Positions 29,892 through 60,985 of a DNA stretch of 64,000 nt are shown here, one piece after another (position 1 is the first letter of the stretch; each line of letters begins with the position of its first letter). A program made the position numbers and the translations under genes. Origin of the DNA: an uncultured Thermoanaerobaculia bacterium (lineage in GTDB: Bacteria > Acidobacteriota > Thermoanaerobaculia > Multivoradales > SZUA-115); NCBI GenBank assembly GCA_964420075.1, contig CAYQRE010000022.1:5825-69824 (forward strand). Reading direction: 5' to 3'. The notes below the pieces were generated by a model. That model searched no databases. It saw only the letters and a program-made list of their open reading frames with translations, and was not told the DNA's origin.

Positions 29892-30182
29892 GTGACATCG
29901 AGTCTGCCGAGCGACCTGCCCGTGGGAGGGGTTCGGAGGGAGCTTGGCCGGGATGACAGCGGCATCCTGTGGCGCACGGTTGGCCGATGGCGTGCGCCCG
30001 GGAGCAGGTTGGTCCGCGCTCGCTGGCGCGCCGACCTCGACGGCGACGGGGACTTCGACTTCCTCGTCGGCCGCTCACCGGGTGAGCTGGTCTACTTACC
30101 CTCCCACGCCCGCGAGGTCTTCGCCGATGGCTTCGAGAGCGGCGACACCTCGGCCTGGACTCTGACGGTGCCAGGCACTTAG
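29892..30182 (+). pseudogene. orphan 96-aa ORF, probable gene remnant with FG-GAP-like DxDGDGD motif and a C-terminal tail shared with the giant DUF11 protein
   Basis: GTG start, no RBS, no signal peptide. The last 20 aa (FADGFESGDTSAWTLTVP) match the C-terminus of ORF 31617..38765 at about 90 % nucleotide identity. Confidence 0.3.
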
Positions 30183-31616: not shown

Positions 31617-34600
31617 TCACGGCACCGTCAGCGTCCAGCCCGAGGTGTCACCGCTCTCGAAGCCGTCGGCGAAGAGCGGCTCGGCCGGCAGGATGGTGGC
31701 GCTCGCGACATCGTCCCCGGGGTCCGGGTCGCCGGCGCCGGCCGGTGGCGAGACCTCGGCGGTGTTGACGATCGGGCCGCTCGCCGCCGCCAGCACGATG
31801 CCGCGTAGCTCGAAGACCACCGCGCCACCGACCGGCAGATCGACCAGCTGGTCGAGGTTGCCGGCGCCGGCGGCCGCGCAGCTGGCGCCAGCGCTCGCCG
31901 TACAGGTCCAGGTGGTGCTGCCGAGGACGGCCGGCAAGGTGTCGCGCACCCGGGCCCCGGTGAGGCTCGCCGGCCCGCCGTTGCTCGCCGTGACGCGGTA
32001 GGTGACCGGATCGCCGGCCAGGTAGCGGCTGCGGTCGACCGTCTTGCTCACCACGAGGTCGGCGGCGAGGAGCAGGCTGTCGGTGTCGCCGTCGCTGTTG
32101 TTGGCCGGGCTGGGGTCGGTGACGCCGGCGCCGGGAGCAACGCTCGCTGTGTTGACGAGGCTCCCGGTCGCCAGCAGATCGATCCCTGCTGTGGCCTGGA
32201 ACACCACCTGGCCGCCCGCCGGCAGGCTCACCGTCTCGCTCAGGTTTCCGCTGCCACTGGCCGCCCCGCAGCTCGCGCCGCCGCTCGCCGAGCAGGTCCA
32301 GCTGACGGCGGTGATGGCCAGCGGGAAGCTGTCGCTGACGAGAGAGCCCGGCGCGTGGCTGGGGCCGGCGTTGGTGACGGTGAGGGTGTAGACGGTCTGG
32401 CTGCCGGGAAGCGCCGTCGCCGCCCCGTCGTCCTTGGCGAGGGCGAGGTCGGCCATCGGCGTCAGGGTATCGAGGTCGGTGGCGCTGTTGTTGGCGGTCG
32501 CTGGGTCGCTGACCCCGGCCGGAGAGATCACACTCGCCGTGTTGCTGAGGGTGCCGGTGACCTCGGGATGAACCGTCGCTGTGGCGGAGTAGGTCAGCGT
32601 GCCGCCGGCGAGGAGGTTGACGGTGTCGAGGATCTGCAGCGTGCCGCTCGCGGCGCAGCTCGAGCCGGCGCTCGCCGTGCAGGTCCAGCTGACCCCGGCG
32701 AGGATGCTGGCGAAGCTGTCGGTGACAGTGGCGCCAGGGGCGTGGCTCGGCCCGAGGTTGTGGACGGTGATGGTGTAGGCGACCGTCCCACCGGGGACGG
32801 CGGTGACGCTGCCGTCGGTCTTGGTGATCGTGAGGTCGGCCTCCGGCGTCAGGGTGTCGACGTCGGTAGCGCTGTTGTTGCCGGCTACGGGGTCAGGCAC
32901 GCCGGCCGGCGGAGTGATGGTCGCCGTGTTGGTCAGCAGGCCGCTCGCCCCCGGGTCCACCGTGCCGGTGGCCGTGAAGGTGACGCTGCCGCCGGCGGTG
33001 AGCTGGACGAGTCGCGAGATCGTGCCGCTGCCGCCGCTCGTGCCGCAGCTGGCGCCGCCGGTGGCCGTGCAGGTCCAGGGCAGGCCAGCGAGGGCGGCGG
33101 GAAAGGTGTCCTCGACGAGGGCGTTCGGGGCGTCGCTCGGCCCCAGGTTGCTCGCCACGACGGTGTAAGTGATCGGCCGGCCGGGAGCGATCGTCGTCAG
33201 GCCGTCGGTCTTGGTGATCGCGAGGTCCGCCGCGACGGAAAGCAGAGTGGTGGTGCTCACCGTGTTGTTGCCGGGCTGCGGGTCGGGAGAGGGGGACGAG
33301 ACGGTCGCCTGGTTGACGACCGAGGTGCCGGTGGCGAGCGCAGAGGCGGCACGAAAGCGGGCCTGCACCACCACCGAGGAGCCGGCGGCAAGGCTGCCCA
33401 GGTCGCAAGGGAAGCCGCTCGCGCACGGGGCGGTGGCGGCGACGAAGCTGGTGCCGGCCGGGGTCGGGTCGGCGAGTGAGACGGCGGTCGCCAGGCCGGG
33501 GCCGAGGTTGCGCACCAGCAGGGTGTAGGTGAGCACCTCGCCGGCGCGCGCCGTTGCTGGCCCGCGCTTCTCGACGGCGAGGTCGGCGGCCTCGGCACCC
33601 ACGCCGGTGGTGGCCGTGGCGCTGTCGTTGCCGGCCAGGCCATCGAGCTCGTTGGCCTGCGCCGAGGCGGTGTTGGTGATCGGGTTCGGGCCGCTGTAGT
33701 TGGCGGGCACGTTGAACGTCACCCGCACGTTGACGCTCGCTCCCGGCGCCAGGCTGTCGAGGAAGCAAGGGAAGCCGCCGGCGCAGGGGGCCGTGGCGCC
33801 GGCGAAGCTGAGGCCGGGGGGCGTCGGGTCGGCGAGACGGGTGTTGGTGCTCGGCGAAGGGCCGCGGTTGGTCACCGTCAGGTCGTAGCTCACGCTCTGG
33901 CCGGCGGTGGCCGCGGCCGGCCCCCGCTTGCTGACCGCCAGGTCGGCGGCAGCGGCCACCAGGCTGGTGAGCGCCGAGGCTGAGTTGTTGGCGGTGGCCG
34001 GGTCCGCCGTCGCGGCGCTGACGCTCGCCGTGTTGACGATCAGTGACGGGCCGGCGTAGTCCGGCGGGATCGCCAGCACCACCTCGATCGTGCGGCTGGC
34101 GCCGACCGGCAGGCCGCCGAGCGAGCAATCGAAGCTCGTGGCGCAGGGCGGGCTCGCCGAGACGAAGCTGAGGCCGGCCGGGATGGTCTCGCTCAGGTGG
34201 ACGTCAGCGGCATCGTCCGGCCCCAGATTGCTTACCGTGAGGGTGTAGGTGACGGTCGAGGCGAGGGTAGCGACCGAGGGCGCCGTCTTGCTGATCGCGA
34301 GGTCGGCCGTTGCGGCGCGGTCGACGGCGGTCGCCGAGCGGGCGCTGTCGTCCGCCGGCGCGGGATCGGCGGCGTCGCTCGCGATCGCCGCCTGGTTGAC
34401 GATCGGGTCCGGCCCGGCGTAGGCCGCCGGCACGGCGTAGGTCGCCGTGAAGCTGACTGTCGCGCCGGCCGCGAGGGTGCCGAGCGAGCAGGGGAAGCCG
34501 CCACTGCAGGGTGCGTCGGCGCTCGTCAGGGTGAGGCCGGGGGGCGTCGGGTCCGTGAGGTCGACGTGAGCGTCCGATGGGCCGGCGTTGTGGACGGAGA

Positions 34601-37600
34601 AGGCGAAGGTCAGGGCACCGCCACGGGCGACCGAGCCCGGCCCCGTCTTGCCGAGCGAGAGCTGGGCGACGCGGGTGAGGGTGTCCTGGTCGGTGGCGCT
34701 GTTGTTGCCCGAGGTCGGGTCGGTGACGGCGGGGGGCGCCATCACGCTCGCCGTGTTGGCAAGCGTGCCGGTGGCGGCGGGGTCGACGGTACCGCCGAGC
34801 ACGAAGGTGAGGTGGCTGCCGGCGGGGAGGTTGGCGGCGCCGGCGATGGCGCCGCTGCCGCTCGCCGCCGGGCAGCTGGCGCCGCCGGTCGGCGTGCAGG
34901 TCCAGCTCGCGGCGAGGAGGGCTGCCGGCGGCGTGTCACTGATCGTTGCGCCCACCACGTTGCTGGGGCCGGCGTTGCTCACCGTGATCGTGTAGCTCAC
35001 GGCCTCGCCGGGCACGGTGCTGGTGCGGCCGTCCGTCTTGGTGACGGCGAGGTCGGCCAGGGGGGCGAGGCCGCTGGCGTCCGAGGCCAGGTTGTTGCCG
35101 GCCACCGGGTCCGTGGTACCGGCGGAGGGTGCCACGCTCACCTGGTTGACGACCGCCGCCGAGGCCGCCGGGTCGACGGTCGCCGTCAGCAGGTAGGTGA
35201 GGCTGCCGCCGACCGGCAGGTTGACCGTCTGGGCGATGGCGCCGCTGCCGGCGGCCGTGCAGCTGGCACCGCCCGCTGGCGTGCAGGTCCAGCTCGCGGA
35301 GAGCAGCACGGCCGGCGGCGTGTCGGTCACCGTGGCGCCGGTGGCGTGGCTCGGGCCTAGGTTGCTGACCGTGATCGTGTAGGTCACCGGCTGGCCGGGG
35401 ACCACCGTGGCGCGGCCGTCCGTCTTAGTGACGGCGAGGTCGGCCTGGCGGGAGACCGGAGTGACGGCGGTCACCGTGTCGTTCGCCGGGTTGCTGTCCG
35501 GCGTCACGGTGCTGGCGGTCGCCGTGTTGCTGATCGTCGCGCCGCCAAAGCCGGGCGGCACGGCGTAGGTCACCACCAGCTCGACGAAGCCGCTCGGCGC
35601 GAGGTCCGGCAGGCTGCAGGGAAAACCACTCATGCAAGGCGCCGAGGCGCTCAGGAAGGTGATGCCGGGCGGTGTCGGGTCGGCGAGGGAGACGCCGCGG
35701 GCCGTGCCGGCACCCTGGTTGGTCACCCGCACGGTGTAGGCGAGCTGGGTGCCGGCGACGACGGACGCCGGGCCCATCTTGGTGGTGACGAGATCGGCTG
35801 GCGGCACGACGGGGTCGGCGTCGCTGGCGCTGTCGTTGCCCGCCACCGGGTCACTGGCGCCAGCCGGGGGCGCCACCGTCGCCGTGTTGGTGAGCGTGCC
35901 GCTGGCCGCCGGGGCGACCGTCGCCTGCAGGACGTAGGTCAGTGTGCCGCCGGCGCGCAGGTTCACAGTGTCGGCGATCGAGCCGCTGCCGCTCGCCGCG
36001 CAGCTGCTGCCGGCGGAGGCGGTGCAGGCCCAGGTGGCGGCGGTCAGCGCCGGGGGCAAGGTGTCCGTCACCGTGGCGCCGGCGAGGTCGGAGGGCCCCT
36101 GGCTGGTCACCGTCAGCGTGTAGGTCAGGGCCTGCCCGGGCGACACCTCGAGGCGGCCATTGGTCTTGCTGATGCCGAGATCGGCGACGTAACCCACGTG
36201 GGTGGAGGTCGAGCTGCTGTCGTTGCCCAGCGTCGGATCGAGGACGTTGGCGAGCACCATCGCCTGGTTGACGATCGGGTTGGGGCTGACGTGATCGGGC
36301 TCGACGCCGAGGACCAGGCTCAGGGCCCGCGTGAAGCCGACGGGCAGGGTGCCGAGAAGGCAAGGAAAGCCGCTCTCGCAGGGGCTGCTCGCCGCCACGA
36401 AGACGAGGTTCGCCGGGGCCAGGTCGTCGAGGGTCACCGGCACGGCCGCCGGCCCGCGGTTGCTCACCAGCAAGGTGAAGGGCAAGGCCTCGCCGGCGGC
36501 GATCTCGGCCGGGGCGGCCTTGGTCACCGCGACGTCGGCGGCCGGCGTCAGGAGGCCGGTGAGCGCGCTGGCGCTGTTGTCCGCCGCGAAGCCTTCCGGC
36601 TGCGTGGCGACGACCGAGGTCGTGCTGGTGAGCAGGGCGGGGGCACCGCTTGCGGGCGCGACGAAGAAGGCCCGCAGCTCGCGGCGGGCGCCGGGGGCAA
36701 GGGTGCCCAGGTTGCAGGGGAAGCCCAGGCTGCAGGGCGGGTCGCCGGTGCCGGCGGCGAGCCCTGGCGGGGCCGGATCGCTGAGGGTGACGCCGGTCGC
36801 CGTCGCCGGGCCCTGGTTCTCGACGCTGATCAGGTAGGTGAGCGGGCTCGCCAGACCCACTTGTGCCGGCCCGCTCTGCTGCACGCGGAGGTCGACGGTG
36901 TCGGCGCCGAGCGGTACGCCGGTGCTGCCGGAGTTGTTGCCGGCGGCGGGGTCGGTGGCGGTGCTGCTGCTCACGCTTGCCGCGTAGACGATGGGATTGG
37001 GCCCGGCATAGCCACCGGGGATGCCGAAGGTCACCCGCAGGCTGCGCGTGCCGCCCGGGTTGAGGTCCCCGAGGCTGCAGGGGAAGCTGCCGGCGGCGCA
37101 CGGCGCGGTGGCGGCGACGAAGAACAGCCCCGGGGGCGGCGTGTGCGCCAGCTGCAGGCTGCGGGCGTCGTGGGGCCCAGCGTTGCTCACCTGCACCAGG
37201 TAGGTGACCGTCGAGCCGAGGGCTGCCGAGGGTGGCCCGCTGACGCTCACCGCGAGGTCGGCGCTCGGTGTGCCGCCGAGCGGCAGCCGGGAGCGCGCAG
37301 CGTTGTTGCCCGCTTGCGGATCGCTCGCCAGGGTCGAGACGGCGCCGAGGGTGGTGATCGGGTCTGGCCCCAAGTAGGGGGAGGGCCGGTCGAAGAAGAC
37401 GTCCAGGCTCTGCGTCGCGCCGGGGGCGAGGTCGGCGACGGGACAGTCGGTGAGCCCACCGCAGCCGGCACCCGCGCCGAGGTCGGCAGCCAGCCCGGCC
37501 GGCACGGGCACGGTTACCACCAGGCCGGTGGCGGTCGACGGCCCGGCATTGCGCACGGTGATCTGGGCGTGGAAGGGCGCCGAGGGGGGCAGCGCGTGGA

Positions 37601-38765
37601 CGGTCACCAGGTCGATCGCCACGTCGGCCGTCGGGTTGAGCGGGTTGGTGTCGCTCGCCGTGTTGTTGCCGGGGCTGGGGTCCATGCCGGTCGCCGGCTG
37701 GATGGTCGCCGAGAGCGTCAAGGTACCCAGCGCCGTCGGCGCGATGTGGGCCCGCAGGGTGTAGGTCAGCGTTCCGCCGACGCTCAGGTCGACAACGTCG
37801 CTCGGGCTGCCGCTGCCACTCGGCGTGCAGCTGCCACCGCTCGCGACGCAGGTCCAGGTCACGCTGCCGAGGCTCGGCGGCAGGCTGGCGGTGAGCACGG
37901 CGCCGGTCGCGGCACCGATGCCGAAGTTCATCACCGTCAGGCTGTAGGCCACGTCGGTACCGGGCACGCTCGCCGTCCGCTGGTCGTCGAGAGCCACCCC
38001 GAGGTCCGGCACCCCGAGCGCCAGGCGGGCGGCGTAGTCCACCACGTTGGGGGCGTAGATCAGGTTGAAGGCGTCGCGGGGCGGGTTGGCGCCGCCGCCG
38101 GCGAGGAACTGATCGAGGGGCATCGTCGAGTAGTAGACGCCGCCGTCGCCGAAGGGGTAGAGGAAGGCGACGACCTCGGCCGGGTTGGTGCGCGACAGGA
38201 TGCGGCGGGCGAGCGCTGGCAGGCTCGCCGAGGCCGCGAAGCCGTGCGAAGAGAAGCTGCCGTTGTCGAGCGAGGACGCCGTCAGCACGCCACCGGCACC
38301 GCTGGTCACCGAGGTCGAGGTGCTGACGATCTCGATGTTGTTGGGGTCGGCGAAGTCGCGGCTGATGGTGAAACCGCTCCCCCCGGGGAGGATCGTCTTG
38401 GCGCCGCCCGTGCCGTCGGGGTTCGAGACGTAGCGGTCGTGAATGACGAGGATCAAGCCGTTGCTGACCGCCGTCTGGATGTCGGCGAGCCGTGCCAGGT
38501 ACTCGGCGCCGTAGCTGCCGTTCGAGGGGTTCTGCACCATCAGCACGTCGATCCCCGCCAGCTCGGCCGGCGAGAGGTCGAAGATCTGGATCGCCGTCTG
38601 GCCGGCAGCGGTGATCGGCGCCACCTGGCTCGCGCTGCCGGCGCCGAGCGTCATGTCGTAGTAGCCCACGTTGACGGCCGCCGCCGGCTGGGCCGGGAGG
38701 GCGCCGAGGGCGAGCACCACGAGGGCGGGGCGAAGGGCACGGACGGAGCGGGCGTAGGCGGGCAT
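31617..38765 (-). CDS. giant (about 2,380 aa) surface/adhesin-like protein with about 19 DUF11 ('conserved repeat domain') repeats
   Basis: Signal peptide after the Met at 38765 (MPAYARSVRALRPALVVLALGALPAQPAAA). A roughly 300-aa N-terminal domain. Then repeated units of the form …DLAVTKTDG…VTYTITVSNLGPS.ATGATVTD.LPA…TWTCT…GGASC…G.G…NLPAGGSLTF… (DUF11/TIGR01451-like). C-terminus …LFADGFESGDTSGWTLTVP. Confidence 0.8.
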   Translation of the reverse strand: MPAYARSVRALRPALVVLALGALPAQPAAAVNVGYYDMTLGAGSASQVAPITAAGQTAIQIFDLSPAELAGIDVLMVQNPSNGSYGAEYLARLADIQTAVSNGLILVIHDRYVSNPDGTGGAKTILPGGSGFTISRDFADPNNIEIVSTSTSVTSGAGGVLTASSLDNGSFSSHGFAASASLPALARRILSRTNPAEVVAFLYPFGDGGVYYSTMPLDQFLAGGGANPPRDAFNLIYAPNVVDYAARLALGVPDLGVALDDQRTASVPGTDVAYSLTVMNFGIGAATGAVLTASLPPSLGSVTWTCVASGGSCTPSGSGSPSDVVDLSVGGTLTYTLRAHIAPTALGTLTLSATIQPATGMDPSPGNNTASDTNPLNPTADVAIDLVTVHALPPSAPFHAQITVRNAGPSTATGLVVTVPVPAGLAADLGAGAGCGGLTDCPVADLAPGATQSLDVFFDRPSPYLGPDPITTLGAVSTLASDPQAGNNAARSRLPLGGTPSADLAVSVSGPPSAALGSTVTYLVQVSNAGPHDARSLQLAHTPPPGLFFVAATAPCAAGSFPCSLGDLNPGGTRSLRVTFGIPGGYAGPNPIVYAASVSSSTATDPAAGNNSGSTGVPLGADTVDLRVQQSGPAQVGLASPLTYLISVENQGPATATGVTLSDPAPPGLAAGTGDPPCSLGFPCNLGTLAPGARRELRAFFVAPASGAPALLTSTTSVVATQPEGFAADNSASALTGLLTPAADVAVTKAAPAEIAAGEALPFTLLVSNRGPAAVPVTLDDLAPANLVFVAASSPCESGFPCLLGTLPVGFTRALSLVLGVEPDHVSPNPIVNQAMVLANVLDPTLGNDSSSTSTHVGYVADLGISKTNGRLEVSPGQALTYTLTVTSQGPSDLAGATVTDTLPPALTAATWACTASAGSSCAASGSGSIADTVNLRAGGTLTYVLQATVAPAASGTLTNTATVAPPAGASDPVAGNDSASDADPVVPPADLVTTKMGPASVVAGTQLAYTVRVTNQGAGTARGVSLADPTPPGITFLSASAPCMSGFPCSLPDLAPSGFVELVVTYAVPPGFGGATISNTATASTVTPDSNPANDTVTAVTPVSRQADLAVTKTDGRATVVPGQPVTYTITVSNLGPSHATGATVTDTPPAVLLSASWTCTPAGGASCTAAGSGAIAQTVNLPVGGSLTYLLTATVDPAASAAVVNQVSVAPSAGTTDPVAGNNLASDASGLAPLADLAVTKTDGRTSTVPGEAVSYTITVSNAGPSNVVGATISDTPPAALLAASWTCTPTGGASCPAASGSGAIAGAANLPAGSHLTFVLGGTVDPAATGTLANTASVMAPPAVTDPTSGNNSATDQDTLTRVAQLSLGKTGPGSVARGGALTFAFSVHNAGPSDAHVDLTDPTPPGLTLTSADAPCSGGFPCSLGTLAAGATVSFTATYAVPAAYAGPDPIVNQAAIASDAADPAPADDSARSATAVDRAATADLAISKTAPSVATLASTVTYTLTVSNLGPDDAADVHLSETIPAGLSFVSASPPCATSFDCSLGGLPVGASRTIEVVLAIPPDYAGPSLIVNTASVSAATADPATANNSASALTSLVAAAADLAVSKRGPAAATAGQSVSYDLTVTNRGPSPSTNTRLADPTPPGLSFAGATAPCAGGFPCFLDSLAPGASVNVRVTFNVPANYSGPNPITNTASAQANELDGLAGNDSATATTGVGAEAADLAVEKRGPATARAGEVLTYTLLVRNLGPGLATAVSLADPTPAGTSFVAATAPCASGFPCDLGSLAAGSSVVVQARFRAASALATGTSVVNQATVSSPSPDPQPGNNTVSTTTLLSVAADLAITKTDGLTTIAPGRPITYTVVASNLGPSDAPNALVEDTFPAALAGLPWTCTATGGASCGTSGGSGTISRLVQLTAGGSVTFTATGTVDPGASGLLTNTATITPPAGVPDPVAGNNSATDVDTLTPEADLTITKTDGSVTAVPGGTVAYTITVHNLGPSHAPGATVTDSFASILAGVSWTCTASAGSSCAASGTLQILDTVNLLAGGTLTYSATATVHPEVTGTLSNTASVISPAGVSDPATANNSATDLDTLTPMADLALAKDDGAATALPGSQTVYTLTVTNAGPSHAPGSLVSDSFPLAITAVSWTCSASGGASCGAASGSGNLSETVSLPAGGQVVFQATAGIDLLATGSLVNTASVAPGAGVTDPSPANNSDGDTDSLLLAADLVVSKTVDRSRYLAGDPVTYRVTASNGGPASLTGARVRDTLPAVLGSTTWTCTASAGASCAAAGAGNLDQLVDLPVGGAVVFELRGIVLAAASGPIVNTAEVSPPAGAGDPDPGDDVASATILPAEPLFADGFESGDTSGWTLTVP
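31700..37700. repeat. intragenic tandem repeats (about 330-375 nt period) encoding the DUF11 units of the giant protein
   Basis: Protein-level periodicity of about 110-125 aa recurs about 19 times. The boundaries are approximate. Confidence 0.6.
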
Positions 38766-38850
38766 CAACGCGGACCTTTCTCGGTCGAGACCAGGGCTCG
38801 GAATACGTTTGCTAGCCGGAAGCGAACCATCGTGATGCGCAGATGGTTCT

Positions 38851-38879
38851 TTGACAGCAATCCGTGCTTTGGATATGCT
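38851..38879 (+). promoter_or_regulatory. candidate sigma70-like promoter of the eCIS operon (TTGACA-N17-TATGCT), with a second TTGACAG repeat 40 bp downstream
   Basis: Hexamers read in the AT-rich divergent intergenic region (38766..38997). AGGAGA RBS 8 nt before the sheath ATG. Confidence 0.4.
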
Positions 38880-38997
38880 CGTTTGGTCACTTGACAGTAG
38901 CAAGATAGAGCGATGAGTCGCAACTAGCCGTGAGCGGACAGCTCCAGCGTGGAGCGGTCTGTGCTCTCTTGGCGATGTATTTTCAGGAGATTCGGTT

Positions 38998-40563
38998 ATG
39001 CCTGTGAATCCAACCTATCCGGGCGTGTACATCGAAGAGCTGGCGAGCGGGGTGCGGACGATCACCGGGGTCGCCACTTCGATCACCGCTCTCCTGGGCC
39101 GGACGCTGCGCGGGCCGGTCAACCGGCCTATGACCCTCAACAGCTTCGGGGACTTTGAGCGCGTCTTCGGTGGCCTGTGGGCCGAGAGCACCGTGTCCTT
39201 CGCGGTGCGCGACTTCTTCCTCAACGGTGGCAGCCAGGCGGTCGTCGTGCGGTTGTTCCGCGCCTCGGGCAACGGCAAGGCAAAGCTCGTCTTCGGTACC
39301 GCCCCTGACCTCACCCTCGAAGCCGCCTCCGAGGGCCTGTGGGGCAACGCCCTGACGGCAACGGTCTCTTTGCTCGATGCCGCCTCGGCGGCGCAGGTGG
39401 CGCCCCGCCTCGGGGTCGAGCCCGGCGACCTCTTCAATCTGGCGGTGACCGACACCGCGGCGGGCGTTACCGAGGTCCACCGCAACGTCACGGTGCGCGA
39501 CAGCCCGCGCCGGCTGGACCTCGTGCTGGCTGAGGACTCGGCCCTGGTGCGCGTCGCCGGCGCGCTGCCGACGGCGCCGCCGATTCCCAACCCGCCGGGT
39601 ACACCCGTCACCGTCGTCGTCCTACCCACCAACCAGGGCAACGACGGCAGCGCCCTCACCACGACGCAGTTCCAGGGCAGCCGCGCCGCGAAGACCGGCC
39701 TCTATGCCCTGGAGAACGCCGACCTCTTCAACCTCCTCTGCATCCCGCCCTACGCCCCCGGCACCGACGTCACGGCGAGCTTCTGGGCCGAGGCGGCTGC
39801 CTACGCCAGTGAGCGGCGGGCGATGCTCCTGGTCGACCCGCCGGCGAGCTGGGACGAGGTGAACGACGCGGTGAGCGGCATCGCGGCGATCGCCAACCCG
39901 ATGGGCTCGGCGAAGAAGAACGCGGCGTTCTTCTTCCCGCGTCTGAACGAGGCCAACCCGATCCGGCAGGACATGGTCGAGGTCTTCGTCCCCTGTGGCG
40001 CCGTCGCCGGCGTCTTCGCCCGCACCGACGCCCGCCGCGGCGTCTGGAAGGCACCGGCCGGCCTCGAGGCCAACCTCAACGGCGTGGTGGCGCTCAGCGT
40101 GCCGATGACCGACGCCGAGAACGGCCTGATCAACCCGCTGGGAGTCAACGCGCTGCGCAACCGGCCGGCCGCCGGGCCGGTGGTGTGGGGCGCCCGCACC
40201 CTCGACGGCGACGACCGCCTGGCCTCGGAGTGGAAGTACGTGCCGGTGCGCCGCCTCGCCCTCTACCTCGAGGAGAGCCTCTACCGCGGCACCCAGTGGG
40301 TGGTTTTCGAGCCCAACGACGAGCCTCTGTGGTCGCAGATCCGTCTCAACATCGGCGCCTTCCTGCAGACGCTGTTCCGCCAGGGCGCCTTCCAGGGCCG
40401 CACGCCGCAGGAGGCCTACTTCGTCAAGGTGGACCGCGAGACGACCACTCAGGCGGACATCGACCGCGGCATCGTCAACATCGTCGTCGGGTTCGCGCCG
40501 CTGAAGCCGGCCGAGTTCGTGATCGTGAAGATCCAGCAGATCGCCGGCCAGGTCCCGGCCTAG
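38998..40563 (+). CDS. contractile tail sheath protein (eCIS/phage-tail-like)
   Basis: N-terminus MPVNPTYPGVYIEE… is the signature start of phage/eCIS/T6SS sheath proteins. 521 aa. Confidence 0.9.
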   Translation: MPVNPTYPGVYIEELASGVRTITGVATSITALLGRTLRGPVNRPMTLNSFGDFERVFGGLWAESTVSFAVRDFFLNGGSQAVVVRLFRASGNGKAKLVFGTAPDLTLEAASEGLWGNALTATVSLLDAASAAQVAPRLGVEPGDLFNLAVTDTAAGVTEVHRNVTVRDSPRRLDLVLAEDSALVRVAGALPTAPPIPNPPGTPVTVVVLPTNQGNDGSALTTTQFQGSRAAKTGLYALENADLFNLLCIPPYAPGTDVTASFWAEAAAYASERRAMLLVDPPASWDEVNDAVSGIAAIANPMGSAKKNAAFFFPRLNEANPIRQDMVEVFVPCGAVAGVFARTDARRGVWKAPAGLEANLNGVVALSVPMTDAENGLINPLGVNALRNRPAAGPVVWGARTLDGDDRLASEWKYVPVRRLALYLEESLYRGTQWVVFEPNDEPLWSQIRLNIGAFLQTLFRQGAFQGRTPQEAYFVKVDRETTTQADIDRGIVNIVVGFAPLKPAEFVIVKIQQIAGQVPA

Positions 40564-40576
40564 GGAGGTCTCGAGC

Positions 40577-41086
40577 ATGGAATTCAGCGTCAATGCCCAG
40601 CGCCTCGACCCGTACAAGAACTTCAAGTTCCGGGTGAAGTGGGATGGCCGCTACGTCGCCGGGGTGAGCAAGGTCGGCTCGCTCAAGCGCACCACCGACG
40701 TCGTCGAGCACCGCGCCGGCGGCGACCCTTCGACGGTGCTCAAGTCGCCGGGGCAGAACAAATACGAGGCGATCACCCTCGAGCGTGGCCTGACCCACGA
40801 CCCGGAGTTCGAGGCCTGGGCCACCAAAGTGTGGAACTTCGGTGCCGGCCTGGGCGCCGAGGTGTCGCTCGCCGACTTCCGCAAGGACATCATCATCGAG
40901 GTCTACAACGAGGCCGGCCAGCTCGCCCTCGCCTACAAGGTCTACCGCTGTTGGCCGTCGGAGTACCAGGCGCTGCCGGAGCTCGATGGCTCGGGCAACG
41001 CCGTGGCGATCGAGATGCTCACCCTGCAGAACGAGGGCTGGGAGCGGGACACGGCGGTCACCGAGCCGACGGAGCCCAGCTTCTAG
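40577..41086 (+). CDS. tail tube protein (T4 gp19 / Afp1-like)
   Basis: 169 aa with the motif …DPYKNFKFRVKWDG…VSKV. Directly downstream of the sheath gene. Confidence 0.85.
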   Translation: MEFSVNAQRLDPYKNFKFRVKWDGRYVAGVSKVGSLKRTTDVVEHRAGGDPSTVLKSPGQNKYEAITLERGLTHDPEFEAWATKVWNFGAGLGAEVSLADFRKDIIIEVYNEAGQLALAYKVYRCWPSEYQALPELDGSGNAVAIEMLTLQNEGWERDTAVTEPTEPSF

Positions 41087-41107
41087 GCTCCGGCCCGAGG
41101 GCGGACG

Positions 41108-41809
41108 GTGGTGGGAGCGAGCGAGCTGCTGGCGCTGTGGGAGCGGACCCGGGGGCGGTCGCTGGTCGAGCAGGCCCTGGTCCTGCTCGACGGCGCGGAG
41201 CTGCCTCTCGGCGCCGCCAACCGGCTGCTGCTGCGGCGGTACCAGGCGAGCTTCGGCGACCGGCTGGATCTCTACGCTGCTTGCCCGGCCTGCGGTGAGG
41301 AGCTGGAGGTGGCGGTCGCGATCAGCGAGCTCCTGGCGGCAGAAGCGGTGGAAGCCGCCGCCGAGCCCGAGATCGCCCTGGCGAGCGGTGGGCTCACCAC
41401 CCGGCTGCGCCGGCCGGGCTTCGCCGACCTCGCGAGCGTCGCCGAGCTGGCGCCCGCCGAGGCCGAGGCGGCGCTCCTCGCCCGCTGCCTGGTTGCGGCG
41501 GAGCACGAGGGTGCCGCCGTCGCTGCCGCCGACCTCGACACCGGCGCCCGGGAAGCGATCGCGATGGCCCTCGCCGCTGCTGATCCCCTGGCCGAGATCC
41601 TCCTCTCTCTCACCTGCCCGGCCTGCGAGCACGGCTGGCAGGCCCTCGTCGAGCCGGCGCAGTGCCTGGTGCGCCAGATCGAGGCGGCGGCCCATCGGCT
41701 GTTGCGCGAGGTGGACGCTCTGGCCCACTCCTACGGCTGGAGCGAAGGGGAGATCCTGGCCCTGAGCGCGCCGCGCCGGCAGGCCTACCTCGCCATGGTG
41801 ACGGCATGA
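41108..41809 (+). CDS. hypothetical eCIS-associated protein with two CPAC zinc-ribbon-like motifs
   Basis: 233 aa. CPACGEE and CPACEHG motifs about 90 aa apart. Translationally coupled to the next gene. Confidence 0.5.
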   Translation: MVGASELLALWERTRGRSLVEQALVLLDGAELPLGAANRLLLRRYQASFGDRLDLYAACPACGEELEVAVAISELLAAEAVEAAAEPEIALASGGLTTRLRRPGFADLASVAELAPAEAEAALLARCLVAAEHEGAAVAAADLDTGAREAIAMALAAADPLAEILLSLTCPACEHGWQALVEPAQCLVRQIEAAAHRLLREVDALAHSYGWSEGEILALSAPRRQAYLAMVTA

Positions 41810-42708
41810 GCTACCTGGCACGGCTGGCGGCGCGGGCCCGCGGTGAGGGGCCGGAGCTGGCGCCGCGGCGCCTGTCGCGCTTCGATCCCGCCGCCGGGCC
41901 ATGGGTCGCTGAGGGCCGGCTGGAGGGCGCCGAGGCCGGGTCGCCGGTGGGGGATGGGCCGCCGGCGGTGGCGCCTGGGTGGACGGCGGAGCGGCAGCTC
42001 GCCTCGCCCGCGGACCAACCGGGCGCCACCAACGAGCGCCGCGAGCTCCAGCGCCCGAGCTCTGCACCGGCCGTCACCCTTCCCAGCCTGCCGACGGCCG
42101 CCTCCGTCTCGGCCCCGCCTGTCCAGTCCCTACCCATCCGGCCTGTCGATCTGGCCGTCGACGTTGCGCATCCCGCTCACGCAACGCAGGAGCCGGCGCG
42201 GGAGAGGCTGGCCCGGAGGGCGCCCGCTGCTGCGACCAGGATGGACCCGAATCCCACGGCCGGCCCGGCGGTGGAGGCGGAGGAACGGCCGGCACGCAGG
42301 CCGGCCGCTTCGAGCGTGGACGATCAGGCTCCCGGCAGCGACCACCCGCGGCTGCAGCGGCCTGGCCCGATCCGGGCCGTCACTGCCGCCGACGTGACGA
42401 CTGACTTCACTGTCGCGGCCCAGCCGGTCCGGTCCGGTCTCCGCTCCGCTGCCTCGACCGTCTCCGCCCTCGCCCTCCCGGCCGCTTCCGTGCCGCGGGC
42501 CTATCCACGCCCGCTGGCTGCCGAGCTGGCTCGTGAGCAGCGGGCCGAGCGCGGGGCGAGCGACGGCCCGCCGATCGTCCACGTCACCATCGAGAAGGTC
42601 GAGGTGGAGGCTGTGCCGCGCCCTGGACCGCCGCCGCGGCCGACCCCGGCGAGCGGCCCGCGGCTCGCCCTCGGCGACTACCTCGCGGCCCGGGGCCGCC
42701 GGCGATGA
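41806..42708 (+). CDS. hypothetical Pro/Ala-rich low-complexity protein (candidate tube-length/tape-measure-like component)
   Basis: ATGA overlap on both sides. 300 aa, mostly low-complexity, with a conserved-looking C-terminal …IVHVTIEKVEVEA… segment. Confidence 0.45.
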   Translation: MSYLARLAARARGEGPELAPRRLSRFDPAAGPWVAEGRLEGAEAGSPVGDGPPAVAPGWTAERQLASPADQPGATNERRELQRPSSAPAVTLPSLPTAASVSAPPVQSLPIRPVDLAVDVAHPAHATQEPARERLARRAPAAATRMDPNPTAGPAVEAEERPARRPAASSVDDQAPGSDHPRLQRPGPIRAVTAADVTTDFTVAAQPVRSGLRSAASTVSALALPAASVPRAYPRPLAAELAREQRAERGASDGPPIVHVTIEKVEVEAVPRPGPPPRPTPASGPRLALGDYLAARGRRR

Positions 42709-43987
42709 GCAACTACCTCGCCATCGCCACCGCCACGGCGACCCTGCGGCGCTTCCTCCAGGGCGTCGTCGCCGACGACGTCAGTGGCGCCACGGTCACC
42801 ACGGTGCGGCCCGACGCCGCCGGCAGCGGTCTGCCGGAGACCGGCGTCAACCTCTTCCTCTATCAGGTGACGCCGAACCCCGAGCTACGCAACCGCGACC
42901 TGCCGACGCGCCGCAGCGACGGCAGCGCCGCGGCACGGCCCGAGGCCGCCCTCGACCTCCACTATCTGCTGACCTTCTACGGCAACCACGCAACGCTCGA
43001 GCCCCAGCGCCTGCTCGGCAGCGTGGCGCGGTCCATCCACGCGCGGCCGGTGCTCAGCCGCGAGATGATCCTCGCGACCCTGGCTGATCCGGCCTTCGCT
43101 TACCTCGCCGGTTCGGACCTCGCCGACGCCCCCGACAAGGTCCGCCTGACGCCGCAGCTGCTCAAGCTGGAGGAGCTCTACCAGCTGTGGTCCGGCCTGC
43201 TCTCGAAGGCGGACTTCGCCACTTCGCTCGTCTATCGCGCTGGGGTGGTGCTGCTCACCGCCGAGGAGCCGGCGACGGCCGCCCTGCCGGTGCGCGAGCG
43301 CACGCTCACGGTGCAGCCCATCCGCAGCCCGCGCCTCGCGAGCGTGGTGAGCGCCGCCGGTGACGGCGAGCCGATCGTCGTCGGCAGCACCCTGGTGCTG
43401 CGCGGTGAGCGCCTCGCCGGTGAGCGCACGGAGGTACGGCTGGCCGGGCAGGAGGTCGAGCCCGCGGCGGCGAACGTCTCGGCACGCGAGATCCGTCTGC
43501 CGCTCGCCCCGCCCCTCTTCGACGTCGGCACCCTGCGCGCCGGCCCGCAGGGTGCGCAGGTCCTCCACCCGTTCCTGCTCGGCGACCCGCCGCAGCCGCG
43601 GCCGGGCTTCGCCTCGAACGTCGCAGCCTTCGTGCTGCGGCCACTGCTGAGCGACCTTTCCTACCAGCACGCCTCGGGCACCAAGCAGGCGCTGAGCGGC
43701 ACGGTCACCTGCAACGTCAGCCCGCCGATCGCCGTCGACCAGCGCCTCGTCCTGGAGCTCAACGGCCTGCCGGGCCTGTCGGTCGCCGGCCTCTCCTACG
43801 TCTTCGCGGTGCCGCCGGTCGAGGCGCCGACGACTGCTCTCGAGGCGCCGGTCGCGGGCGTCGCCCCTGGCGTCTACCTCGTGCGACTGAGCGTCGACGG
43901 CGCCGCGAGCCCTCTGGTGGCGGACACCACGCCCGGCAGCGCGACGTTCGGGCTCTACATGGAGCCGGCGGTGGAGATCGGCGCGGA

Positions 43988-43991
<4 letters not shown>
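42705..43991 (+). CDS. DUF4255 domain protein (eCIS tail terminator/cap, Afp16/Pvc16-like)
   Basis: N-terminus MSNYLAIATATATLRRFLQ… is characteristic of DUF4255. Confidence 0.8.
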
Positions 43992-45927
<1,936 letters not shown>

Positions 45928-45931
<4 letters not shown>

Positions 45932-46581
45932 CCAGCTTCCCGCGCTCGCCCCGCCTGCTCAAGGGCGCGATCGTCGCCATCGACCCCTTCAACCCGGTGG
46001 CGAGCGTGATCGTCTTCCAGTACAACCCGGAGACGTTGTCGCGCACGCTGGCGCCGCAGCTCGGCGTCGACGGCGGCGCCCGCGCCGAGATCCTCCGCCT
46101 CAAGGGGGCGCCGAAGGAGACGATCGGCGCCGAGATCGCCATCGACGCTACCGACCAGCTCGAGCGCGCCGATCCGCAGGCCACCCGGCTGGGCATCTAC
46201 CCGCAGCTCTCCGCTCTCGAGATGCTGGTCTACCCGAAGAGCAGCCTGGTGATCACCAACACCGCGCTCGCCGCCCTCGGCACCCTCGAGGTGATCGCCC
46301 CGCAGGCGCCCCTGACCCTCTTCGCCTGGGGGGTGCGGCGGATGGTGCCAGTGGTGATCGAGAGCCTGGCGGTGACCGAGGAGGCATACGACGTCAACCT
46401 CAACCCGATCCGTGCCCGCGTCGGCCTGAGCTTGCGCGTGCTCACTTACGACGACCTGCCGATCCTCCACCCCGGCTACGGCATCTACCTGGCGCACCAG
46501 CTGGTCAAGGAAGCGATGGCGACCCTGGCCAGCCTGGAGAACGTCAACGCGGTGGTCGCCGGCGACGTGCGGGTGCTCTAG
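45928..46581 (+). CDS. phage-tail-like protein, possible second tube / tube-initiator (Afp5/Afp7 tube-domain-like)
   Basis: 217 aa. ATGA-coupled. Beta-rich sequence (…IVAIDPFNPVASVIVFQYNPETLSRT…). Its position between the ATPase and the LysM/hub genes supports this call. Confidence 0.5.
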
Positions 46582-46600
46582 GCCGCGGCGCCGAGGAGAT

Positions 46601-46903
46601 GTGATGCTCGATCCCGAAAGCCGTTACGCCGAGCTCGAGACCGCCACCCTGACCCTGGCGGACGGCCGCCAGGTCTCGTATCTCAAGCGGCGCTTCCTGC
46701 CGCAGGCGGAGGCGCTGTCCCTGCTCACCGAGGTGGCAGTGCGCGACGGCGAGCGGCTGGACCTGATCGCCGCCCGCACCCTCGGCGACCCTCTGCAATG
46801 GTGGCGGGTGGCGGACGCCAACGAGGCGATGCATCCCGACGAGCTGCTGGCCGAGCCCGGGCGCCGGCTGCGGGTGGCGGTGCCGGAGGTGCTGCCGCGG
46901 TGA
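46601..46903 (+). CDS. LysM-like tail protein (P2 gpX / Afp7 LysM-like)
   Basis: 100 aa. …GERLDLIAARTLGDPLQWWRVADAN… resembles LysM peptidoglycan-binding modules found in tail protein X. Confidence 0.55.
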   Translation: MMLDPESRYAELETATLTLADGRQVSYLKRRFLPQAEALSLLTEVAVRDGERLDLIAARTLGDPLQWWRVADANEAMHPDELLAEPGRRLRVAVPEVLPR

Positions 46904-48045
46904 GCGAGCTGGGCGTGCGCCTCACCCTGCTGCTCGGGCCGACGGTCGCCCGGCCGGCCCCCCTCGCCTTCATCGAGAACCTGGCGGCGGTCGAGGTGCG
47001 GCACAGCGACGAGGAGCGCTCGGGCTTCCAGCTCGTTTTCAAGGTGGGGCGGCGCGGGCCGCTCGACCTGCTCGAATACCCGCAGCTGCGCAGCCCTCTC
47101 CTCGCCGCCTTCAACCGGGTGATCCTGATCGTCACCTTCAACGTCCGACCGCGGGTGCTGATGGACGGCATCATCACCCACGTCGAGCTGCAGCCCGGCG
47201 ACGAGGCGGGGGCCGCGACATTGACGGTCACCGGCGAGGACGTCAGCGTGATGATGGACCTCGAGGAGCGGGCCGTCGAGCATCCGGCACTGCCCGATCC
47301 GGCGATCGTCTTCAAGCTTCTCGCCCGCTACGCCCGCTTCGGCATCCTGCCGGCGGTGGTGCCCCCGAAGGTGATCGACCCGCCGATCCCCATCGAGCGC
47401 ATCCCCGTGCAGGTGGGCACGGACCGCGAGTACCTCGAGACGCTCGCCCGCCGCCACGGTCACGTCTTCTACCTCACGGCCGGGCCGGCGCCGTTCACCA
47501 ACACGGCCTATTGGGGGCCGCCGCGCCGCCTCGGCGTGCCGCAGCGGGCACTCTCGGTGAACTTCGGCTCGCAGACCAACGTCACCTCGCTCGCCTTCCA
47601 GCACGACGCCCTGAAGCCGGCCTTCGTCGACGGCGACGCCATCGACGCCCGCTTCAATCGCAAGTTTCCCGTGCGCACCTTCGCCGCCCAGCGAGTGCCG
47701 CCGCTCTCTCTGCGGCCCACCTGGCTGGCGCAGCGGGCGAACACCCGCACGACGCTCTACCGTGGCTGCGCGCCCAGCATCCCCGCCGCCTTCGGTCGCG
47801 CCCAGGCCTACACCGACGCCTCGACCGACGCCACCGTCACCGCCTCCGGCGAGCTCGACGCCGCCCGCTACGGCGAGATCCTGCGCGCTCGCGAGCTAGT
47901 AGGGCTGCGCGGCGCCGGCCTTTCGCACGACGGTCTGTACTACGTCAAGGCGGTGACCCATCGCCTGGGACGGGGCACCTACACGCAGAGCTTCACCTTG
48001 ACCCGCGACGGACTGGGCACCACGGTGCCGGTGGTGCGGCCATGA
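46900..48045 (+). CDS. phage late-control gene D-like baseplate hub protein (gp27/VgrG-N-like)
   Basis: GTG overlapping the upstream stop. 381 aa. Its position immediately before the gpV-like spike supports the hub call. Confidence 0.65.
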   Translation: MSELGVRLTLLLGPTVARPAPLAFIENLAAVEVRHSDEERSGFQLVFKVGRRGPLDLLEYPQLRSPLLAAFNRVILIVTFNVRPRVLMDGIITHVELQPGDEAGAATLTVTGEDVSVMMDLEERAVEHPALPDPAIVFKLLARYARFGILPAVVPPKVIDPPIPIERIPVQVGTDREYLETLARRHGHVFYLTAGPAPFTNTAYWGPPRRLGVPQRALSVNFGSQTNVTSLAFQHDALKPAFVDGDAIDARFNRKFPVRTFAAQRVPPLSLRPTWLAQRANTRTTLYRGCAPSIPAAFGRAQAYTDASTDATVTASGELDAARYGEILRARELVGLRGAGLSHDGLYYVKAVTHRLGRGTYTQSFTLTRDGLGTTVPVVRP

Positions 48046-48560
48046 ACGAAGGCGGGATGTCGAACGGGCCGTTCTACGGCAAGTACCGCGGTAAGGTGAC
48101 CAATAACGTCGACCCGCTGCAGATGGGCCGCATCCAGGTCAGCGTGCCAGCGGTGCTCGGTGACGGCCGTCTGTCCTGGGCGCTGCCCTGCGCGCCGCTG
48201 GCGGGCCCGGGCGTGGGCTTCTACGCCGTGCCGCCCCTCGACGCCAACGTCTGGGTGGAGTTCGAGGCCGGGGACCCCGACTCGCCGATCTGGAGCGGCT
48301 GCTTCTGGGACAAGGGGCAGCTGCCCGTCAAGCCGGCGAACCCGTTCACCACCGTGCTCAAGAGCAAGAGCGTCACCCTCACCCTGGTCGATCTGCCGGG
48401 CGCCGGTGGCTTCACCCTCGAGGTCAAGCCGCCGGCGGTGGCCACACCGCTCAAGCTGGCCTTCACCTCGGCGGGGATCGAGCTCCAGAACGGCAAGAAC
48501 TCGATCAAGCTGTCGCCGGCCTCGGTGAGCATCAACAATGGCGCCCTGGAGGTGATCTAG
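48042..48560 (+). CDS. baseplate spike protein (P2 gpV / gp5-like OB-fold)
   Basis: 172 aa. N-terminal …GPFYGKYRGKVTNNVDPLQMGRIQVSVP… is the gpV/VgrG OB-fold signature. Confidence 0.75.
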   Translation: MNEGGMSNGPFYGKYRGKVTNNVDPLQMGRIQVSVPAVLGDGRLSWALPCAPLAGPGVGFYAVPPLDANVWVEFEAGDPDSPIWSGCFWDKGQLPVKPANPFTTVLKSKSVTLTLVDLPGAGGFTLEVKPPAVATPLKLAFTSAGIELQNGKNSIKLSPASVSINNGALEVI

Positions 48561-48883
48561 TGCCGGGCTTCCTCCTCCACAAGGGTGCCGTGGTGCAATG
48601 CGCCCACCTCGGGCGGGCGGAACCGATCCTCACCAACCCGCGGGTCAAGGTGGGCGGCCAGCCGGTGGTGACCCAGGCCGGCCCCTGGCGGGTCTCGGGC
48701 TGCACACTGCCGGCGCCGACGGCGGGCAACGGCCCCTGCCTCACCGCCCTGTGGAGCACGGCTGCCGTGCGCGTGCGGGCGAGCGGCCTGCCCCTCCTCC
48801 TCTTCGACAGCAAGGCGAGTTGCGTGCCGACGGCAACGCCGCTCACCGTCGTCGTCACGCAGCTGCGGGTACGCGGGCAATGA
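48560..48883 (+). CDS. PAAR-like spike-tip protein (DUF4280/PAAR family)
   Basis: 107 aa, Gly/Val-rich with conserved Cys/His (…VVQCAHLG…). Immediately follows the spike gene with a GTG overlapping the stop. Confidence 0.55.
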   Translation: MPGFLLHKGAVVQCAHLGRAEPILTNPRVKVGGQPVVTQAGPWRVSGCTLPAPTAGNGPCLTALWSTAAVRVRASGLPLLLFDSKASCVPTATPLTVVVTQLRVRGQ

Positions 48884-49245
48884 CCCAGGTCGGCTTCCCC
48901 TTCCGCCCCGATGGCAGCGGTCGCAGCGCTCTCGCGAGCGAGGAGCAGCACGTGCGCGACCTCATCGAGCAGGTGTTGTTCACGGCGCCGGGCGAGCGGG
49001 TGAACCGGCCGGACTTCGGTAGCGGGCTCCACCAGCTGCTCTTCGGCGCCGCGAGCCCGGAGCTCGCGGCGACCGTTCAGGCGGTGGTGCAGGGGGCCCT
49101 GCAGCAATGGCTGGCCGACCGCCTGCGGGTCGAGACGGTCGAGGTGAAGAGCGACGAGGCACGGCTGACGGTCACCGTCGTCTATTCGCCGCTCTCCGGC
49201 CTCGACCGCCGCGCCGTGGTCTTCGAGCGCGAGGTGGGTGGATGA
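48880..49245 (+). CDS. baseplate wedge protein gp25/GPW-like
   Basis: 121 aa with …VRDLIEQVLFTAPGERVNRPDFGSGLHQLLF…, the GPW/gp25 motif. Confidence 0.8.
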   Translation: MTQVGFPFRPDGSGRSALASEEQHVRDLIEQVLFTAPGERVNRPDFGSGLHQLLFGAASPELAATVQAVVQGALQQWLADRLRVETVEVKSDEARLTVTVVYSPLSGLDRRAVVFEREVGG

Positions 49246-56289: not shown

Positions 56290-56306
56290 GGAGGGTGGAG
56301 ACCGGG

Positions 56307-58652: not shown

Positions 58653-58864
58653 GCGATACCGACACCCCTGCCGTCCCGCAACCCGACCGTGCCCGCTTGG
58701 AGCGCCGGCTCGCCGAGCTCGACGCCGAGCTCGCCAACGGCGAGCGGCTGATGGCCGAGCTGGAGGACCGCCGCCTGCGCCTGCGCGAGTCGATGCTGCG
58801 CATCGGCGGCGCCATCCAGGTGCTGCGCGAGCTGCTCGATCGGCCGCCGGAGGAGGGGGCATGA
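58649..58864 (+). CDS. small coiled-coil protein (71 aa), possible fibre assembly chaperone
   Basis: ATGA-coupled on both sides. Heptad-like …RLERRLAELDAELANGERLMAELEDRRLRLRESMLRIGGAIQVLRELL…. Confidence 0.4.
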   Translation: MSDTDTPAVPQPDRARLERRLAELDAELANGERLMAELEDRRLRLRESMLRIGGAIQVLRELLDRPPEEGA

Positions 58865-60978: not shown

Positions 60979-60985
60979 GGGCGCC

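Follow-up and report, generated by a model that had tools for sequence, protein, structure and literature searches.

The fibrillar adhesins with CLIPPER stalks are a known class of surface proteins, and the subject of this text is a giant member of that class whose gene lies beside an operon for an extracellular contractile injection system (eCIS). Both are encoded in a window of 64,000 nucleotides, the whole stretch of DNA that was analysed, from an uncultured Thermoanaerobaculia bacterium. CLIPPER is the name given to the former DUF11 by Costa et al. (Protein Sci 2025, PMC12617251). CLIPPER domains are typical stalks of fibrillar adhesins, and the structure 9IFR shows one from a Gram-negative member, B9T28_05395 of Acinetobacter silvestris; the domain is CnaA-like and is stabilised by an isopeptide bond involving K715, D748, and N806 (PMC12617251). 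The Lys-Asn bond occurs in many CLIPPER copies but not in all family members, and disulfides often accompany it, most frequently in Acidobacteriota (PMC12617251). The giant protein shares with these adhesins a signal peptide, a terminal functional domain, and tandem CnaA-like immunoglobulin-like (Ig-like) domains, with the isopeptide triad in 13 of its 17 units and predicted disulfides besides. It differs in its unannotated head, which has a class I glutamine-amidotransferase-like (GATase1-like) fold, in its two unit subtypes set in a fixed order, in a novel 19-residue tail with no recognised anchor, and in its place next to an eCIS.

The second system is the eCIS itself. eCIS particles assemble in the cytoplasm, and the Afp and PVC loci include accessory genes for tail fibres (Afp13, Pvc13), regulators, and cargo with an eCIS_core/DUF4157 domain. 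How released particles find their targets is an open question, and work on it has centred on the particles' own tail fibres. Like the Afp and PVC accessory genes, the giant gene sits directly beside the operon, in an arrangement that recurs in four of five ortholog lineages. Unlike them, it is divergent rather than in-operon and is absent from 80 other eCIS loci. Its product is not a trimeric fibre with a baseplate-attachment region, and it carries a Sec signal peptide, which places it outside the cytoplasmic assembly route.

The reading preferred here, at a probability of roughly 50%, is that the giant protein is a fibrillar-adhesin-like surface protein, a lineage-specific accessory of the eCIS, and functionally coupled to it. 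As far as searched, neither the tail tag, nor the unannotated head family, nor the conserved pairing with an eCIS has been described before. No paper containing both DUF11 and the phrase "extracellular contractile injection" was found in the literature, and a 2026 catalogue of receptor-binding domains in eCIS makes no mention of DUF11.

The giant gene and the parts of its product are as follows.

31617..38765, minus strand: coding sequence of the giant protein, by open reading frame (ORF) call and translation; stop codon at 31617-31619, ATG start at 38765.
38679..38765, minus strand: Sec-type signal peptide, residues 1-29, read from the sequence; AxA cleavage motif, no lipobox Cys.
38010..38678, minus strand: head domain, residues 30-252 (~223 residues), characterised with an AlphaFold2 (AF2) model and Foldseek; no Cys.
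36540..38009, minus strand: CLIPPER/DUF11 repeats R1-R4, residues 253-742; a Cys pair in each, the Lys/Asp/Asn triad complete in none.
31677..36539, minus strand: CLIPPER/DUF11 repeats R5-R17, residues 743-2363; each with a Cys pair and all three residues of the Lys-Asp(Glu)-Asn triad.
31620..31676, minus strand: C-terminal tail LFADGFESGDTSGWTLTVP, 19 residues, conserved in the orthologs P0102, P0094, and L095.

The original prediction, made from the letters alone, had described a single minus-strand ORF of about 2,380 residues with DUF11 repeats, and both points hold. The ORF is unbroken and encodes 2,382 residues, and it matches PF01345 (E=1.8e-284; 924.5 bits against a cut-off of 24.6) and TIGR01451 (506 bits) over 17 stretches each. 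The mature form has a mass of ~229 kDa and a pI of ~4.2, with 162 Asp and Glu residues against 69 Lys and Arg. A longer ORF could begin at a TTG at 38903, but the preferred start is the ATG at 38765, which the Sec-type leader follows. The public gene call on an 89.7-kb NCBI contig gives the identical 2,382-residue product. GC content at third codon positions is 0.93, and the window as a whole has 73.2% GC. The gene is monocistronic, its 3' neighbour being convergent (30465-31514, plus strand). A minus-strand ORF at 30408-31592 was considered as an operon partner and rejected, since its GC by codon position is wrong (0.91/0.61/0.56); the real gene there is the convergent one. A search of PDB sequences with the whole giant protein gave no match, nor did an Rfam scan of the whole window.

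The prediction also held that an ORF interrupted in sequencing reads would speak for a collapsed assembly or a pseudogene, and public assemblies allow the comparison. Four contigs, assembled from other runs or projects, align colinearly with the window, and in all of them the ORF is free of stops and frameshifts: the Logan contigs SRR17659548 and SRR17659559 (L170 and L171, 100% identical), the Logan contig DRR350542 (L172, 99.57%, gap-free), and WBZL01007295.1 (L088, 99.37%). The three Logan contigs cover 2,371 of the 2,382 codons. Strain-level variants include no indels and amount to 17 substitutions, one of which lies in the head. All three Logan contigs end at window position 31651, inside the tail-coding DNA, and this shared end suggests that tail DNA is repeated elsewhere in the genome. 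An assembly artefact or a pseudogene born of collapsed or expanded repeats is extremely improbable: tandem repeats are a known assembly hazard and the common stop at 31651 might be taken as its trace, but the repeats are only 60-79% identical in DNA, the four other contigs show no gaps or stops, and an ortholog of 57% identity has the same order of 17 units.

At the N-terminus the predicted signal peptide was borne out. The leader reads MPAYARSVRALRPALVVLALGALPAQPAAA up to the predicted cleavage point and is followed there by VNV; orthologs have comparable leaders. The signal peptide, together with the Cys pairs, places the giant protein outside the cytoplasm, and the likely route is Sec export. 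TonB-receptor and AcrB-type genes indicate a diderm. The nearest named homologs of the resistance-nodulation-division (RND) pump in the window come from a Thermoanaerobaculia metagenome-assembled genome (MAG; 71%) and an Acidobacteriota MAG (70%).

The stalk makes up most of the protein. A separate parse with our own hidden Markov model (HMM) finds 17 units over residues 253-2363, in agreement with the Pfam and NCBIfam counts; the original estimate of about 19 was too high. Every repeat holds exactly one Cys pair, which accounts for all 34 Cys of the giant protein. A TWTCT…GGASC pair had been claimed for every unit; the Cys pair is indeed universal, but the W-x-C motif is restricted to fewer than half of the units. 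These eight W-type units (R1, R6, R8, R9, and R14-R17) are ~129 residues long and carry W-x-C-x6/7-C. The other nine (R2-R5, R7, and R10-R13) are P-type units of ~120 residues with PCxxGFPCxLG, degenerate in R2 (GCGGLTDCPV). The order from R1 to R17 is W-P-P-P-P-W-P-W-W-P-P-P-P-W-W-W-W.

The AF2 model of R8 has a predicted local distance difference test (pLDDT) score of 97.1. Its top Foldseek match in the PDB is 9IFR (E 6.8e-7, TM score 0.63/0.65), so that the model shows the CnaA-like Ig beta-sandwich. In a search of PDB sequences with the repeat profile, 9IFR was the only match, a weak one (E 0.0025). In the columns of the HMM alignment, 13 of the 17 repeats (R5-R17) have all three residues of the Lys/Asp(Glu)/Asn triad, and no complete triad is present in R1-R4. 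The protein is extremely depleted of lysine, with 14 residues in 2,382, and 13 of the 14 stand at offset 7 of R5-R17, in the column that aligns with K715 of 9IFR. A Lys-Asn isopeptide bond is thus predicted in the 13 C-terminal stalk domains, and one disulfide is predicted in every stalk domain. With nearly all of its lysines at the predicted position, the giant protein offers a clean natural test case for CLIPPER isopeptide bonds. In the HMMER alignment, K715 of 9IFR maps to chain position 10 and N806 to position 101, as expected. Residue 748 maps to an Asn, with an Asp one position later; the numbering may be off by one, in the paper or in the alignment made here, and the triad assignment is unaffected.

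The array is old and stable. In the closest linked ortholog, L091, there are again 17 units in the same subtype order, and each unit of the window is 38-70% identical to its positional partner there, more than to most of its paralogs. The orthologs P0094 and P0102 have 18 units each. Within the window array, repeats share at most 62% amino acid identity, their DNA is at best 79% identical (over 216 nt), and Tandem Repeats Finder (TRF) reports a single two-copy stretch at 74%. Such DNA is not of the near-identical kind that is prone to assembly collapse. Shared unit order, positional orthology, and the lack of strain indels together argue for an old array, and comparison of the window with its orthologs gave no trace of concerted evolution or copy-number flux. 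The suggestion that the repeats are prone to copy-number variation is therefore not supported: the unit order is kept in an ortholog of 57% identity, and the strain variants are free of indels.

The N-terminal domain had been put at roughly 300 residues and is shorter, spanning about residues 30-252. The head has no Pfam match even at E<=1 and no NCBIfam model. Its AF2 model (pLDDT 91.8) has a class I glutamine-amidotransferase-like fold. Foldseek matches in the PDB are 2gk3 (STM3548), 9k7j (GGP1), 3rht, 1qdl, 4jqs, GH42 domains, the IFT52 N-terminal domain, and ThuA-like proteins, at E-values from 1e-5 to 1e-3 (best ~1e-5), TM scores of ~0.5, and 10-13% sequence identity. With the GATase1-like and ThuA-like proteins, among them 2gk3, the GH42 trimerisation domain, and the N-terminal domain of IFT52 (called a GIFT domain), the head shares the overall fold. 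It differs from them by its low identity, by its lack of Cys, by its own motifs, and by a presumably extracytoplasmic, surface-displayed location. The conserved motifs are VGYYDM, HDR, LDxGxxSSHG, and PLD, of which the last three are invariant. A Cys-His-Glu triad is absent, as none of the 34 Cys lies within residues 30-252. A classical GATase enzyme is ruled out, because there is no Cys to serve as nucleophile. The head is probably a binding module or an enzyme of another kind, perhaps with a catalytic site formed by the HDR, SSHG, and PLD motifs.

Searched against 1.84 billion proteins, a profile of head relatives retrieves 912 representative clusters. Most of the closest relatives are exported proteins of ~270 residues that end in PEP-CTERM, IPTL-CTERM, or VPDSG-CTERM. 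In other relatives the domain lies at either end of Calx-beta, RTX, SpaA_2, or DUF11 proteins. Read from these domain partners, the distribution of the family is that expected of a surface-displayed functional module. At one locus (L084:3754-10522), a stand-alone head protein, P0011, comes right after two surface proteins with CLIPPER domains and IPTL-CTERM, one of which carries a C-type lectin domain. Heads and CLIPPER stalks thus associate also as separate, adjoining genes.

At the other end, the 19-residue tail has the consensus F-x-[DN]-G-F-E-S-G-[DN]-x-S-[AG]-W-[ST]-x-x-V-P. It forms the extreme C-terminus of the orthologs P0102 (ending in FDDGFESGNFSAWSRVVP) and L095 (ending in FSDGFESGDTSAWSSVVGP; L095:16990-17059) and lies 36 residues before the end in P0094. 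A search with a 52-residue query retrieved 12 candidates, and the tail recurs at the C-terminus of several otherwise unrelated, FG-GAP-like protein fragments from other metagenomes (P0311-P0318). The motif has no Pfam or NCBIfam model, no match to it was found in the literature, and the tail contains no hydrophobic segment. Despite that missing segment, it likely behaves like a C-terminal sorting tag, and it is a candidate for an undescribed sorting or secretion signal.

A second copy of the tag lies 1.5 kb from the giant gene.

30117..30182, plus strand: second tail-tag copy VFADGFESGDTSAWTLTVPGT followed by a stop, ending a 96-residue ORF at 29892-30182.

The 96-residue ORF (DLDGDGDFDF… and then the tail) resembles what is left of an FG-GAP-type protein. 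The two tail-coding DNA copies are inverted and, counted by eye, ~91% identical over ~57 nt. They flank the convergent gene at 30465-31514 (plus strand), which encodes a secreted, Ser/Thr/Cys-rich protein of 349 residues with no Pfam match. The last ~90 residues of this protein look PKD-like by eye (…FTYQWKYDG…), and its gene does not recur next to the orthologs of the giant gene. At 29575-29826 (minus strand), between a DUF2268 protease-like gene and the tail-tag remnant, a gene encodes an 83-residue secreted, Cys-rich peptide with a weak match to DUF6289 (E 5.5e-4, under the Pfam cut-off).

Signal peptide, terminal non-repeat domain, and long repeat stalk, the architecture of a fibrillar adhesin, are thus all present in the domain parse of the giant protein. 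The pairing of the gene with an eCIS rests on the following features.

38766..38997, no strand: divergent intergenic region between the giant gene and the sheath gene, 232 bp, 53.9% GC.
38824..38849, no strand: perfect 8-bp inverted repeat GAACCATC-N10-GATGGTTC, which abuts the -35 element.
38851..38879, plus strand: sigma-70-like promoter candidate, TTGACA, 17 nt, TATGCT; a consensus match only, facing the sheath gene.
38998..64000, plus strand: eCIS operon, from Pfam scans; it runs past the end of the window.
38998-40563, plus strand: sheath gene (Phage_sheath_1/1C by Pfam), the first of the operon.

The operon begins with the sheath, gp19 tube, T4_baseplate-like, unknown, Pvc16_N, AAA ATPase, and CIS_tube genes. 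Two unknowns, the spike (Phage_base_V), a further unknown, gp25, and a gene for an 855-residue protein follow, and then Baseplate_J-like, Tail_P2_I, three DUF6519 proteins, and an eCIS_core-domain protein. The core genes are kept in 62-80 of the 80 related loci. The three consecutive DUF6519 paralogs (56289-63067, plus strand; ~700-800 residues each), after the Tail_P2_I-like gene, probably encode the particle's own fibre or receptor-binding proteins. The eCIS_core (PF13699) gene starts at 63064 and runs off the window.

Divergent transcription across an AT-rich spacer of about 230 bp had been proposed, and the layout is as described: the 232 bp to the sheath gene are the lowest-GC stretch of that length in the 64 kb. 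In L091, L169, and L168 the equivalent spacers measure 250, 311, and 309 bp, respectively. The -35 element CTTTGACAG also occurs in the spacers of L091 and L168, and L169 has a degenerate form. The element followed 17 nt later by TAnnnT, in the direction of the sheath gene, is common to three of the four divergent spacers. This -35/-10 pair is missing upstream of the L095 ortholog, where no sheath gene lies nearby, and is best read as a promoter of the eCIS. The original prediction took the shared region as a sign of co-regulation; the pair that faces the sheath gene is the only conserved element found in the spacers. The 8-bp inverted repeat is not conserved in the orthologous spacers.

Full-length orthologs of the giant protein were reached via the head domain, by way of the context of a head-domain homolog annotated as Thermoanaerobaculia (P0006), a metagenome scan, and a search of representatives. 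The divergent pairing of giant gene and sheath gene is present in four of the five ortholog lineages, at protein identities of 46-57%. Outside the window these are as follows, with identities to the window proteins taken from full-length alignment, except for L095, whose 53% comes from tblastn.

L083/L091 (Thermoanaerobaculia MAG; L091 is WNGB01002293.1): giant protein of 2,486 residues, 57% identical (56% by tblastn); sheath 65%; divergent, with the same operon gene order.
L169 (P0094): giant protein of 2,561 residues, 52%; sheath 69%; divergent from the sheath gene.
L168 (P0102): giant protein of 2,524 residues, 47%; sheath 56%; divergent, with the sheath gene cut by the contig end.
L095 (Ga0214471_10000225): giant ORF to 17059, 53%; no sheath gene seen; housekeeping genes upstream.

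The claim that an adhesin-like giant protein is linked to the eCIS is thereby supported by L091, L169, and L168, where the ortholog stands divergent from a sheath gene. Identities of giant proteins and sheaths are roughly congruent across lineages, and the two genes probably belong together. Two further contigs give no context information, as P0163 lies wholly inside the gene and P0099 starts 58 bp upstream. Earlier, 80 eCIS loci had been fetched via the sheath protein (43-60% sheath identity; 55 of the 80 with at least 8.6 kb upstream), and from these the adjacency had seemed not to be conserved. That view was overturned by the full-length orthologs beside sheath genes. The block shared by the window and the 80 loci starts exactly at the sheath gene. 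A fair summary of these comparisons is that the linkage is strong, lineage-restricted, and not absolute, and that it fits either functional coupling or inherited synteny.

Under the preferred reading, the giant protein would be exported by Sec as a fibrillar-adhesin-like surface protein whose 17 Ig-like CLIPPER domains form a stalk with the head at its tip. An Ig-like domain measures ~4 nm, so that 17 of them would give a stalk of ~70 nm. With 17 disulfides and 13 isopeptide bonds predicted along it, the fibre would resist force and proteases. The tail tag (F-x-D-G-F-E-S-G-D-x-S-x-W-…-V-P), which unrelated secreted proteins share, would lie at the cell-proximal end and likely serve there in sorting or retention. 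The gene would have been inherited with the eCIS operon as an accessory of one group of loci, probably within Thermoanaerobaculia (Acidobacteriota). Functional coupling or co-regulation with the eCIS would then reflect a shared role when a target is met: the fibril may bind target cells or a surface so that released particles nearby reach them. In a more specific and rather doubtful version, the cross-linked surface fibril of ~70 nm is a part of the weapon locus itself and either keeps target cells or surfaces in reach or catches released particles at the surface of the producer.

A giant exported fibril kept beside the operon in several diverged lineages suggests a second, cell-borne layer of targeting or adhesion, and the giant gene and the eCIS form a concrete gene pair to test. 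If the more specific version is true, the head would be a new surface-display module and the tail tag a new sorting signal. The head family with its ~900 representative clusters, the tail tag, and the placement of lysines are new material on the poorly known surface biology of Thermoanaerobaculia.

Several observations weigh against functional coupling. No CLIPPER or head-domain gene was found by tblastn and profile HMM in any of the 80 other eCIS loci, so an eCIS does not need the giant protein; L004, L007, and L008, which belong to Thermoanaerobaculia or Acidobacteriota and have a similar sheath identity, are among the loci without it. The L095 ortholog has no sheath gene within 10 kb upstream. 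No operator or palindrome shared by the four divergent spacers was found, and no promoter for the giant gene itself could be assigned in the spacer. An exported protein would meet particles assembled in the cytoplasm only outside the cell, and the operon already has its own candidate fibre genes, the three DUF6519 genes. Pfam and NCBIfam scans revealed none of the recognised anchor or sorting signals (LPXTG, PEP-CTERM, type I secretion system (T1SS) retention module, beta-barrel), and in the L091 ortholog a different C-terminal domain of ~110 residues replaces the tail tag. In a neighbour-joining sheath tree the four linked sheaths group together, along with L019, at a weak bootstrap of 18/100 for the four linked loci, so that no monophyly is claimed; the window with L169 alone reaches 89/100. 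The four lineages may be fairly close relatives, and the pairing may be inherited synteny.

It is accordingly possible, on a tentative estimate, that the giant protein is an ordinary fibrillar adhesin or biofilm protein and a neighbour of the eCIS by descent only, the two gene sets working independently. The pairing would then have arisen once, in an ancestor of related acidobacterial lineages, and would not yet have been broken. The 80 loci without the gene, the ortholog of L095 kept without a nearby sheath gene, and the lack of a shared operator all suit this account. So does the fact that adhesins with CLIPPER stalks are common and usually unrelated to eCIS (PMC12617251). Other members of the head family likewise occur in contexts unrelated to eCIS (L081, L084, L085, and L086). 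What descent alone explains less well is that the pairing and its divergent orientation persist at 46-57% protein identity, whereas the neighbourhood on the other side is not shared: none of the window genes between 18.6 and 31.5 kb was found on L091. Even the exceptional L095 keeps a tie to the eCIS. Downstream of its giant gene, on the same strand (L095:9914-18896 region), lies a gene for a 550-residue eCIS_core (PF13699) protein that is 41% identical over 303 residues to the last visible gene of the window operon.

A stronger form of coupling, in which the giant protein is a dedicated partner of the particle, is unlikely. The protein would be a surface tether for released eCIS particles or a recognition fibril that marks cells to be hit or spared. 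The linkage conserved in four of five lineages speaks for such a role, as does the predicted architecture, in which a long, cross-linked stalk bears the head and ends in a tag. The recognition variant is loosely analogous to TraA of Myxococcus xanthus, a protein associated with toxin transfer between cells, which consists of a signal peptide, a PA14 head, a stalk of Cys-rich Myxo Cys-repeats, and a MYXO-CTERM tag. The giant protein has the same layout, from a signal peptide and head at the N-terminus through a stalk of Cys-rich repeats to a short tag at the end; its domains are unrelated to those of TraA, and no polymorphism of its head was seen. The head is 58% identical to that of L091, with 38-70% for each of the repeats, and has received one of the 17 strain substitutions. 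A head no more variable than the stalk fits a polymorphic recognition receptor poorly, and the operon brings candidate fibres of its own.

An S-layer or S-layer-like lattice protein, as the original prediction had also considered, is very unlikely. The giant protein is large, acidic, and exported, and Ig-like repeat proteins occur in some archaeal envelopes (PMC12617251), but no SLH or other S-layer domain appears in the Pfam and NCBIfam scans, the protein forms a cluster by itself in the public protein collection, and a head, a stalk, and a terminal tag make up the architecture of a fibrillar adhesin. A giant adhesin of the RTX type secreted by a T1SS, like LapA or SiiE, was rejected, as the protein has a Sec-type leader and no RTX (HemolysinCabind) match.

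Other genes of the window lie apart from this system. A possible light-regulated cluster for lipids or carotenoids lies at 7944-13955 (plus strand). It comprises a MerR regulator with B12-binding domains, which resembles a CarH-type light sensor, and after it a flavin amine-oxidase/desaturase-like gene and two methyltransferases of the CMAS family. Two DUF4386 paralogs are located at 7042-7788 and 21774-22463.

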